Shown: one piece after another, positions 34,744 to 35,099 of the stretch | Layout: each line of letters begins with the position of its first letter | Position numbering within the stretch: the first letter of the stretch is position 1 | DNA from: Candidatus Zambryskiibacteriota bacterium | GTDB lineage: Bacteria; Patescibacteriota; Minisyncoccia; Phycocordibacterales; WO2-35-19 | Length of the DNA: 64,000 nt | Direction of reading: 5' to 3' | Assembly: GCA_048499675.1 (NCBI GenBank) | Contig: JASNZL010000001.1 | Location: 58,747 to 122,746, forward strand | Made by a program: the position numbers and the translations under genes | Notes under the pieces: model-generated | Told to the model about the DNA's origin: nothing | The model's input: only the letters and a program-made list of their open reading frames with translations | Databases searched by the model: none

Positions 34744-35099
34744 ACAAAATTAACCGCGAAAGCGGTTTTAATTTTGTCAGGTGAAGTAAAGCGTAGCTTT
34801 ACGGAGAGGACTTGAACAGATTGTCGGTTTACTGTCGCACCAGCGACTGTCGACAATCTGCGTTTTGAATTTTATTGAGTGACGACGAAATGAAATTCAA
34901 AAAAAGACTCCTCTCTCGCCCACAAAATTAACCGCGAAAGCGGTTCTAATTTTGTGAGGCGAAGTAAAGCGTAGCTTTATGGAGAGGACTTGAACAGATT
35001 GTCGGTTTACTGTCGCACCAGCGACTGTCGACAATCTGCGTTTTGAATTTCATTGAGTGACGACGAAATGAAATTCAAAAAAAGACTCCTCTCTCGCCC
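34744..35099. repeat. Two tandem ~178-bp units downstream of tRNA-Leu(TAG). Each is terminator hairpin, ~130 bp, then a partial copy of the tRNA 3' end.
   Basis: Unit 1 is 34744..34921 and unit 2 is 34922..35099, near-identical. Each begins caaaattaaccgcgaaagcggtt and ends gactcctctctcgccca (the last 14 nt match the tRNA 3' end). Each also contains an inverted copy of the tRNA T-arm (ggagaggacttgaac). Confidence 0.75.

Follow-up and report, generated by a model that had tools for sequence, protein, structure and literature searches.

Tandem 178-bp units behind tRNA-Leu(TAG): a candidate cassette array within a scaffold family that follows tRNA genes in Patescibacteria

Analysis of the 64-kb window, the whole stretch of DNA considered here, showed that tRNA-Leu(TAG) is followed by two near-identical tandem units of 178 bp, each terminating in TCCTCTCTCGCCCA, a copy of the 3′ end of the tRNA gene. 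In the reading that we favour, at a probability of about 0.55, these units are cassettes that are gained, lost, duplicated and reordered at the tRNA-end copies, and they form a subtype of a very large scaffold family of Patescibacteria. The reading draws on the repeat, on family membership, on a covarying fold, on differences between the arrays of four genomes, and on the presence of one core behind different tRNAs.

The tandem units behind tRNA-Leu(TAG)

Tandem Repeats Finder detected a period of 178 at 34731..35101 (2.1 copies, 97% matches, no indels, score 707), in agreement with a preliminary description of this DNA, which had reported two near-identical consecutive units. The 14-mer TCCTCTCTCGCCCA occurs three times, at 34731, 34909 and 35087, with none expected from shuffled sequences. 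The first copy is the last 14 nt of tRNA-Leu(TAG) (34731-34744) and each unit ends in one of the others, so that the units are bounded by tRNA-end copies, following the tRNA 3′-end repeat logic proposed earlier. Units 1 and 2 were identical at 173 of 178 positions (97.2%) and differed at five. No credible ORF was found inside the 178-bp units. The parts of the units, together with the other features of the window, are located in Table 1.

Table 1. Features of the window, with position, strand and basis of the assignment (CM, covariance model).
Feature	Position	Strand	Basis or remark
Promoter-like site TTGAAA-17-TAATAT, 5′ of tRNA-Leu(TAG)	34624..34652	+	consensus scan, pattern match only
tRNA-Leu(TAG)	34664..34745	+	ARAGORN; Rfam tRNA 58.6 bits
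Unit 1, 178 nt	34745..34922	+	fold, CM, terminator scan
Unit 1 terminator-like hairpin with outer A/T stem	34744-34777	+	
Unit 1 GGTGA acceptor-5′-like segment	34780-34784	+	
Unit 1 5′ hairpin	34786-34802	+	
Unit 1 P1a, GGAGAGGACTTGAAC	34803-34817	+	
Unit 1 P2, long hairpin CAGATTGTCG...CGACAATCTG	34817-34860	+	
Unit 1 P3, A/T-rich hairpin	34863-34902	+	cap GAGTGACGACGAA, 34877-34889
Unit 1 tRNA-end copy, preceded by AAAGAC	34909-34922	+	
Unit 2, 178 nt	34923..35100	+	parts as in unit 1, shifted by 178
Unit 2 terminator	34922-34955	+	
Unit 2 5′ hairpin	34964-34980	+	
Unit 2 P1a	34981-34995	+	
Unit 2 P2	34995-35038	+	
Unit 2 P3	35041-35080	+	
Unit 2 P3 cap, GAGTGACGACGAA	35055-35067	+	
Unit 2 tRNA-end copy	35087-35100	+	
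Conserved downstream flank, then degenerate tRNA-trailer copy CACAAAATTAACCGTATAAGCAGATTTAA	35101-35143, then 35144-35172	+	83% repeat match
Main-type scaffold behind tRNA-Lys (34369-34442)	34472..34584	+	CM 46.2 bits, E = 3e-13, outside seed
Main-type scaffold and 21-nt tRNA-Leu(TAA) 3′-end copy (33497-33517)	33409..33517	+	CM 76.6 bits
Main-type scaffold behind tRNA-Tyr (16324-16407)	16168..16281	-	CM 92.7 bits
Main-type scaffold behind tRNA-Ser (47009-47094)	46857..46950	-	CM 77.9 bits
Two serial scaffolds behind tRNA-Glu (47227-47299)	47352..47730	+	CM 80.4, 35.4 and 19.0 bits
Diverged main-type scaffold behind tRNA-Phe (57063-57137)	56884..57007	-	CM 35.1 bits, outside seed

The first hairpin of each unit, AACCGCGAAAGCGGTT at 34752-34767 and 34930-34945, has a G+C-rich stem and a T-run and, as had been proposed, scores as a terminator, on both strands and by pattern match only. 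A pattern scan of the region found nine terminator-like sites, against 1.2 expected. Because the first hairpin scores as a terminator, the Leu(TAG) units may be poorly transcribed. The inverted T-arm copy reported for each unit was also recovered: GAGAGGACTTGAAC, at 34804-34817 and 34982-34995, is a perfect 14-nt complement (100%) of the tRNA T-loop and T-stem at 34724-34737. As RNA, the + strand of the unit is predicted to fold at -67.6 kcal/mol (z = -7.1), with GGUGA/GGCGA and GGAGAGGA pairing with the 3′-terminal tRNA-end copy, and GGAGAGGA lying opposite UCCUCUCU. The GTCGAC-centred palindrome of the preliminary description exists as a sequence feature, but is only a by-product of two nested stems; the real hairpin centre is the loop ACCA.

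Downstream of the second unit, the flank from 35101 onwards resembles the trailer of a scaffold-free version of the locus (L128), and is also found 3′ of the array in two other genomes (L210 and L211). The CACAAAATTAACCGTATAAGCAGATTTAA segment that follows it is probably the ancestral trailer of tRNA-Leu(TAG).

A scaffold family behind tRNA and tmRNA genes

The downstream regions of all eight tRNAs in the window were examined, and the same design was found behind six. Read 5′ to 3′, a hairpin and a stretch antisense to the T-arm lead to GAAAGRCGGA, and a further hairpin separates this from GAGYCGGGGUCG; the design is completed by an A/T hairpin, by GUGAC and by the copied 3′ end of the host tRNA. 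The Lys scaffold lies inside a 143-bp segment flanked by 21-nt repeats (34449-34469 and 34592-34612), and its P1a (34477-34486) pairs with the tRNA-Lys end and trailer; the whole segment is missing from a related genome (L126), in which the corresponding empty site is present. At the tRNA-Ser locus, the direct repeat of tRNA end and trailer amounts to 54 nt. The first Glu scaffold (47352-47462) is intact, and the second (47524-47730) contains an extra module of ~105 nt (47588-47696). The Leu(TAA) scaffold is parted from its tRNA (24920-25004) by an 8.4-kb serine-recombinase island.

Further loci were collected by a pattern drawn from the conserved pieces, in contigs taken from one genome per species; the comparison sequences were nearly all metagenome-assembled genomes. 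At least 120 scaffold loci were obtained, almost all from Patescibacteria and a few from Elusimicrobia. The clades among the matches listed were Saccharibacteria, Paceibacteria, and Kaiser-, Yonath-, Nomura-, Zambryski- and Moranii-bacteria. Among the same listed matches, a tRNA lies on the same strand at most 150 nt 5′ of the scaffold in 85 of 119 cases, and a tmRNA in four; the sequence after GUGAC (GTGAC in DNA) is nearly always a tRNA 3′ end from T-loop C56 onwards, and at least 15 tRNA specificities are represented. Scaffolds are also interleaved in tRNA clusters, and because only 5-24 nt then separate them from the next tRNA, co-transcription of scaffolds and tRNAs is suggested.

The family pattern gave no match in viral contigs, and a viral origin was rejected on this ground. 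Rfam 15, applied at gathering thresholds to the whole window and at E ≤ 10 to three sub-regions, returned tRNAs only, so that a known RNA family was rejected as the identity of the scaffold at the thresholds tried. Full-text literature searches turned up group I introns in T-loops and anticodon loops, integrases acting at the T-loop, and theta ribozymes, and no description of the scaffold. The family is apparently both large and undescribed.

An alignment of 104 scaffolds, from which the covariance model R1 was built, supports a three-way junction in which P1 is formed by the 5′ segment and the tRNA-end copy. A GGA/GA internal loop lies between P2a and P2, and P3 is closed by GGUCGYG/YGUGAC; the collecting pattern fixes part of this junction, so that invariance there arises partly by construction, whereas covariation does not. 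Paired cells made up 89.1%, compared with 69.6% in column shuffles and at most 45% when the partners were slid, and the covariation score was 0.545 against 0.191 (0/500 shuffles). Exchanges in P2a were clean (GAC/GUC, GGC/GCC, AGC/GCU), and pairing in P1 was locus-specific, at 8.61 pairs in 12 against 7.22 ± 0.10. G.U pairs outnumbered A.C pairs (121 vs 61), which argues that folding takes place on the tRNA-sense strand; in the simplest case, this would be an RNA made in one transcript with the tRNA.

The tail is identical to the tRNA from C56 through the discriminator in about 52 of 70 loci, and the identity then ends abruptly; in the remaining loci, the tail has decayed past position ~64. 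Where tail and tRNA are mismatched at positions 57-64, P1a complements the tRNA alone in 26 instances and the tail alone in 5. The 5′ flank also pairs with the acceptor strand in about one third of loci (5.38 vs 4.63 ± 0.14). The copy usually starts at C56, at T60 in the Leu(TAG) units, and at ~G71 for Lys. In 'TGAG' variants, P1a is the 5′ strand of the T-stem and the core lies at position 55/56. Some spacers keep remnants of the 5′ part of the tRNA (6.91 vs 6.23 ± 0.14), including the D and anticodon arms in L122, and because of these remnants some units look like partial second tRNA copies with the core in the T-loop position. Copying of the tail from a mature, CCA-bearing tRNA left no signal, the CCA being present in the tail only in 6 cases and in the gene only in 7.

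The Leu(TAG) units belong to this family, though they score below its main type. With R1, seed members in the window reached 77-93 bits and the unseeded Lys and Phe scaffolds 46 and 35, over a background of at most 10.6. The Leu(TAG) units matched over the full model length at 15.1 bits (34800-34914) and 17.3 bits (34978-35092), with rough E-values of 0.008 and 0.0015, and the L210 copy of the subtype at 22.1 bits (E = 6e-6). In unit 1 the match begins 55 nt past tRNA-Leu(TAG), on the same strand and within the 150-nt distance. An nhmmer comparison aligned a Leu(TAG) unit with the main-type scaffold of L067 (78.6 bits with R1) at E = 1.4e-5; the 5′ hairpin is common to both and the P2 apex nearly identical. 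The closing helix P1 is represented by GAGAGGACTTGAAC, antisense to the tRNA, and by the GGAGAGGA/UCCUCUCU pairing, and the P3 cap motif of the family, GAGYGACGRCGAG, by GAGTGACGACGAA in both units. The preliminary description had assigned the units to a family separate from those containing GAGTCGGGGTCG; this separation was not supported, as the layout, the P1 logic and the P3 cap are common to both and the 5′ hairpin and P2 apex recur in L067, an undoubted main-type member.

The difference lies in the junction. The sequence GAAAGRCGGA ... GAGYCGGGGUCG is absent from the Leu(TAG) units, and in its place stand CAGATTGT and ACAATCTG, which are mutually complementary. The junction strands AGACGGAG and CGAGUCAGGGUCG of L067 become CAGAUUGU and ACAAUCUGCG in the unit, again complementary to each other. 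Instead of the P3 closure GGUCGYG/YGUGAC and a start at C56, the units have AAAGAC directly followed by T60, and their tRNA copy is 14 nt long, against 18-20 nt in the main type. On these alignments, the Leu(TAG) units are a derived subtype, with the asymmetric junction zipped into a perfect stem.

Within the window and ~200 fetched loci, the variant unit was found at the Leu(TAG) locus only. The L210 variant is predicted to fold like the window units (z = -5.9). Three adjacent compensatory pairs in P2 set it apart from them, as does a fully rewritten P3, which is still perfect. Because the fold is kept through compensatory P2 pairs and a different perfect P3, the subtype appears to be structurally maintained across the two lineages compared.

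Variation of the arrays and competing explanations

A comparison of orthologous loci, which the preliminary description had proposed, was made via the downstream SPFH gene, and the arrays of L126, L210 and L128 differed from that of the window. The tRNA order Cys, Leu(taa), Lys, Leu(tag) is common to all orthologous loci. Where the window has two variant units in series, L128 (SPFH 59% identical) is scaffold-free. L126 (SPFH 87%) has one variant unit with its tRNA-end copy and terminator, followed by a main-type scaffold (63.7 bits) with a decayed tail. In L210 (SPFH in the same 90% protein cluster), a main-type scaffold (78.3 bits) precedes a diverged variant and then the window's flank, and L211, from a near-identical strain, likewise has that flank 3′ of a variant unit. 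Cassette content and order therefore differ at this locus among four related genomes, which bears out the earlier suggestion of insertion or duplication, or both, at tRNA-Leu(TAG). Between the window and L126, identity is 96.6-97.2% for the unit, 86.1% for the SPFH gene and 85.0% for the downstream intergenic DNA.

Cores cluster weakly by tRNA type, the nearest neighbour of a core being of the same type in 16 of 79 cases (7.7 ± 3.0 expected). A core of ~100 nt recurs in near-identical form in seven units, each from a different genome, which follow Gly, Ser, Lys, Tyr and three tmRNA genes. When aligned, these seven units resemble one another exactly between GAAAGRCGG and YGUGAC; their spacers show no relationship, and in each unit P1a and tail match the host gene. 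Doublets behind one tRNA or tmRNA gene occur at 11 of the loci examined. In the three informative doublets (L054, L093 and L126), the tRNA-end copy nearer to the tRNA is perfect, whereas the distal copy has decayed. A strict polarity, with the newest unit beside the tRNA, agrees with all three, but was rejected because the cassette order in L210 is the opposite.

These arrays can be accommodated by the following scheme. A cassette consists of a bidirectional terminator-like hairpin and a gene-less, three-helix scaffold of ~115 nt; in its closing helix, P1, a 5′ strand complementary to the T-loop, the T-stem and some of the acceptor strand of tRNA-Leu(TAG) would pair with a 3′ copy of T60-A73. 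The tRNA 3′-end copies between successive cassettes would be the points of addition, loss, duplication and reordering. Each junction would regenerate an intact tRNA end, and the tRNA would stay functional. We infer that recombination takes place within the tRNA-end identity block, either site-specifically or by homology-driven unequal crossing-over, and that an enzyme would act in trans. Re-insertion may have produced the second copy at this locus, or else the ~50-nt repeats made up of tRNA end and terminator underwent unequal crossing-over.

The surroundings of the scaffolds were searched for a candidate enzyme. All-vs-all clustering of ORFs within 5 kb gave no recurring protein family, the largest cluster covering 7 of the 120 loci listed, and all of it housekeeping. 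Among the matches listed, no recurrent integrase, recombinase or nuclease was found in or near the cassettes; a 244-aa HTH ORF was rejected as a partner, as it recurs in five loci only. The window does contain a large serine recombinase (25238-26890), and serine-recombinase fragments adjoin scaffolds in L044 and L049. Of more than 571 relatives of this recombinase (73-91% identity), 80 were fetched. In most of the loci that retain a 3′ flank, the recombinase ORF stops precisely at the ...CACCA end of a tRNA gene in the opposite orientation, which it joins at the CCA end via its own conserved arm of ~70 nt, and not at C56. Scaffolds are nearly absent from these loci (3 in 80), and no serine-recombinase homologue was found in the 120 scaffold loci listed. 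Within the window, 25005-25075 is the reverse complement of the recombinase arm at 26773-26843, so the apparent terminator copy after tRNA-Leu(TAA) is the end of the recombinase element. The serine recombinase was accordingly rejected as the cassette enzyme; it represents a separate, abundant element targeting tRNA CCA ends. The 2.7-kb gap between tRNA and scaffold in L025 was rejected as a cargo island, since it holds IS3 transposases from a secondary insertion. Both the serine-recombinase element and the IS3 element are secondary insertions, placed between a tRNA and its scaffold.

Several points count against a cassette array. No recombinase or nuclease lies in or regularly near the cassettes, and the local serine recombinase is separate. 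Polarity is inconsistent (L054, L093 and L126 vs L210). Repeats of 14-20 nt, or ~50 nt with the terminator, are short for RecA-type recombination. Copies within one genome are highly diverged outside the junction, and divergence outside a conserved junction is typical of functional RNAs, not of recently transposing elements. Because of this pattern, the high conservation of the units could reflect host function rather than recent arrival.

Such a function is the substance of the main rival, which we regard as possible but doubtful: the scaffolds would be host-functional structured RNAs of tRNA transcription units, inherited vertically and acting, for example, in processing or stability by making use of the acceptor/T-arm end of the tRNA. 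The Leu(TAG) pair would have arisen by tandem duplication in situ, through slippage or through unequal crossing-over of the tRNA-end and terminator repeats, with no mobile cassette involved. The strong covariation and conserved junction, the arrangement of one scaffold per tRNA, interleaved in tRNA clusters at 5-24 nt gaps, and the deep divergence of paralogues within one genome are all consistent with it. So are P1a, which tracks the real tRNA over the tail copy (26 vs 5), and P1, which spans the whole acceptor strand in about one third of loci to give a minihelix-like end, as is the failure to find a mobility enzyme among ORFs within 5 kb of the matches listed. This rival does not, however, account well for near-identical cores behind different tRNA types in different genomes, nor for presence, absence and order that vary among close relatives. 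Two scaffold types in series behind one gene (L126, L210 and L105) also argue against it, as does the identity block, which breaks off abruptly at the discriminator, including in scaffolds that leave the acceptor part unpaired. Self-splicing introns are selfish and structurally constrained at once, so the host-RNA and cassette readings are compatible, and not mutually exclusive.

It is very unlikely that the units are scars, that is, attL/attR-proximal remnants of integrase islands at the tRNA 3′ end whose interior has been lost. In favour of scars, tRNA-integrating islands are classically recognized by direct repeats of a tRNA 3′ end that break off at the discriminator, their classical targets are tRNA and tmRNA genes, and both the 8.4-kb large-serine-recombinase island between tRNA-Leu(TAA) and its scaffold and the recombinase fragments beside the scaffolds of L044 and L049 would fit. 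Yet the serine recombinase carries an att arm of its own and uses the CCA end as its junction instead of C56, its family has 3 scaffolds in 80 loci, no integrase family recurs near the 120 scaffolds listed, and a secondary IS3 insertion accounts for the long gap in L025. Nor are scars expected to preserve, across phyla, a three-way junction that covaries.

Harder still to credit is an intron-like origin, with the core as an insert in the T-loop of a partial second tRNA and the tail as a 3′ exon joinable at the RNA level. The 'TGAG' variants, with P1a as the T-stem 5′ strand and the core at 55/56, the tRNA 5′-part remnants in spacers (6.91 vs 6.23 ± 0.14; L122) and tails perfect exactly through the discriminator agree with it, and tmRNA genes are known to carry group I introns in their T-loop (PMC11915505). 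Nevertheless, an intact tRNA gene is always found 5′ of the scaffold, no tRNA that was otherwise missing could be recovered by removing the core in silico, matches to group I or other ribozymes in Rfam are absent, and the copy register is variable (C56, T60, ~G71). A T-loop intron in the sole gene copy was rejected by the same in-silico removal, which rescued nothing. Least credible of all is an assembly artefact, the objection foreseen in the preliminary description: short-read unitigs (Logan contigs, four runs) break at repeat edges and the copy number rests on this assembly, but the units differ at 5 of 178 positions and so are not an exact assembly duplication; L211, an independent assembly of a near-identical strain, has the last unit and the same flank with its own SNPs, related arrays occupy the same place in L126 and L210, and comparable doublets occur at 11 other loci.

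The cassette array thus remains the reading we prefer. A bolder form of it, which seems to us rather unlikely, is that the scaffolds are a class of structured RNA that directs its own placement: the 5′ strand of P1 would read the T-arm in a tRNA gene or transcript and the three-way junction would position the GUGAC end at T-loop 55/56, with insertion, exchange and excision of cassettes at tRNA 3′ ends guided, or even catalysed, by RNA. The result would be a 'tRNA-end integron' of gene-less cassettes throughout the Patescibacteria. If the cassette reading is true, most tRNA and tmRNA genes of many Patescibacteria are trailed by a conserved, individually matched folded element. This would be a large new family of structured nucleic acids in the smallest bacterial genomes, where ~150 bp is costly, and a concrete system for the targeting of gene-less cassettes to tRNA 3′ ends. 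The Leu(TAG) units suggest that a plain stem can replace the junction while the cassette is still maintained and duplicated, so that the requirements for persistence may be separated from the role of the junction itself. In practice, the scaffold repeats explain why assemblies of CPR metagenomes break beside tRNA genes, and tools that detect islands by their tRNA-end repeats can be misled by them.

Comparison with known systems

In every case, the nearest known system departs from the scaffolds in at least one defining feature tested here. MITE and PATE elements, miniature transposons with terminal inverted repeats or hairpins at their ends, have a fixed short target duplication, unlike the scaffold repeats, whose length and register vary (14-54 nt). 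They also come as many near-identical dispersed copies, which are absent here, the variant unit being confined to a single locus in the window and ~200 fetched loci. The scaffolds resemble the bridge RNA of IS110 and the omega RNA of TnpB/IscB in having a conserved scaffold with variable target-matching segments, placed at the edge of the insert beside a copy of the target. They differ from these guides in topology, which is that of a simple three-way junction, and have neither a recombinase or nuclease gene beside them nor a match in Rfam.

HDV-like theta ribozymes lie directly 3′ of phage tRNA genes (PMC10879173) and, like the scaffolds, are small structured RNAs found systematically 3′ of tRNA genes on the same strand. 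They abut and cleave the tRNA 3′ end, whereas scaffolds lie 20-77 nt away, often past a terminator-like hairpin. The scaffolds also differ in holding both a copy of the tRNA end and a segment antisense to it, and HDV-type models were unmatched. Group I introns occur in the T-loop of tmRNA genes (PMC11915505) and in the anticodon loops of Patescibacteria tRNAs (PMC13011429). Like them, the scaffolds are structured RNAs at the T-loop position of tRNA-like genes, are abundant in Patescibacteria, and have diverged in sequence with structure conserved. Unlike them, the scaffolds are only ~115 nt long, have no Rfam group I match, and follow an intact gene, never interrupting the functional copy.

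A further comparison is with the attL/attR direct repeats of genomic islands and phages at tRNA and tmRNA genes. In NBU1, the core is 14 bp long and lies at the 3′ end of a tRNA-Leu gene of Bacteroides. Mycobacteriophage Ms6 integrates at the T-loop of tRNA-Ala (PMC1762012). As at such sites, the repeat is a tRNA 3′ end running from the T-loop to the discriminator or CCA, the tRNA is regenerated, and tandem arrays are possible; a direct tRNA 3′-end repeat bounds the element here, as the 14-mer in three copies and, in the family, as a block ending at the discriminator. The scaffold segment differs from att islands in being only ~110-180 bp long, with no integrase inside or regularly adjacent, and in forming a conserved three-way junction that covaries and has a 5′ strand antisense to the target tRNA. 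Unlike integrons, the arrays are separated by a tRNA 3′-end copy, and integron integrase, attI and genes in the units are absent. The likeness to integron arrays is one of behaviour only, and consists of short, ORF-independent units between recombination sites, of content and order that vary, and of strand-specific folding as in attC.

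The serine recombinase, its arm and its island

The large serine recombinase family is very abundant, with more than 571 metagenome relatives at 73–91% identity. Among the loci fetched for this gene (L130–L209), most of those that include its 3′ flank have the recombinase ORF stopping exactly at the CCA end of a tRNA gene in the opposite orientation, with many isoacceptors serving as the partner. The att arm of the element consists of the final ~70 coding nt of the ORF. Since inverted arm copies lie on both sides of the recombinase body in the window, the body has the opposite orientation to that usually seen, and it may be invertible. 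The island also carries cargo: its aaRS pair represents a synthetase gene that has been duplicated or fragmented.

The series of small ORFs in the window is syntenic in the fetched loci L126, L128 and L129, and the 1457-aa ORF probably encodes a repetitive surface protein.

Coordinates of features in the window and in fetched loci (L-numbers)
Feature	Position	Strand	Remarks
Large serine recombinase region	window 24920–26890		arm copies 25005–25075 and 26773–26843; TGGTG 26844–26848
Truncated aldo/keto reductase, then aaRS genes	window 27271–30237		within island
Class II aaRS fragment, 303 aa	window 28005–28916		
Asp/Asn/Lys-type aaRS, full, 435 aa	window 28930–30237		directly after 303-aa fragment
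HTH protein, 244 aa	window 33622–34356	+	ends 12 nt 5′ of tRNA-Lys
Seven small ORFs in series	window 38723–41205	−	T4SS_pilin domain (PF18895) in at least two
249-nt tandem repeat (2.5 copies, 73%) and 9/18/27-nt repeats	window 50749–51365 and 53439–53496		inside 1457-aa ORF 49774–54147 (−)
Broken second tRNA-Phe copy	window 57172–57433	−	upstream of tRNA-Phe 57063–57137
Extra module, ~105–115 nt	window 47588–47696; 57172–57340 (−); L105 ~1357–1449; L126 ~7060–7200; L210 ~1600–1725, 1250–1385		
Third scaffold type	L015 ~1380–1520, 2300–2430 (−); L125 ~1270–1400		

Variants of the scaffold

Some scaffolds, the folded three-helix elements 3′ of tRNA and tmRNA genes, contain an extra module of composition TTGGGT.GGGACCCAA..GCAAGAC..hairpin..ACAGWUUNUGUAAGAA, in which the GAWUC-UGUAA-GAWUC hairpin covaries. 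Its place of insertion differs among scaffolds; in the relative L210 it lies immediately 5′ of a copy of the tRNA-Leu(taa) end, like a scaffold type in its own right. In the third scaffold type, P1a (the 5′ strand of the closing helix) is followed by GAAAAGGUU...AACCUGUACUGRUCCUGUAAGGAY and directly by the tRNA 3′-end copy, a logic shared with the other scaffolds.

The broken tRNA-Phe copy comprises, in order, GCCGAGGTAGCTCAG, a 59-nt insert, degenerate D/anticodon-arm sequence, the extra module with the P3 hairpin and GTGAC, and ATAGGTCG. GTGAC abuts ATAGGTCG, which corresponds to tRNA-Phe positions ~44–51, and the arrangement suggests that the insertion took place outside the T-loop.

Scaffolds were also found ~460–620 nt 3′ of smpB in L037 and L079, with tails resembling tmRNA 3′ ends. 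ARAGORN found no tmRNA between smpB and scaffold in either locus; the tmRNA gene of these CPR bacteria may have diverged or be interrupted.

The tRNA cluster and its neighbouring proteins

Distant Patescibacteria share the tRNA order Cys, Leu(taa), Lys(ctt), Leu(tag) (window 24810–25004 and 34369–34745; L010, L023, L126, L128, L210). Scaffold occupancy varies at every position, and the cluster offers a handy natural series of filled and empty scaffold sites. Homologues of the HTH protein occurred in five of the 120 scaffold loci among the matches listed, and in one of the five (L055) the homologue likewise stops just 5′ of a tRNA gene. L126 has a LAGLIDADG_3 protein (5567–6298) instead, located elsewhere in the same tRNA cluster. 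Both genes may be free-standing, homing-endonuclease-like genes tied to tRNA clusters.
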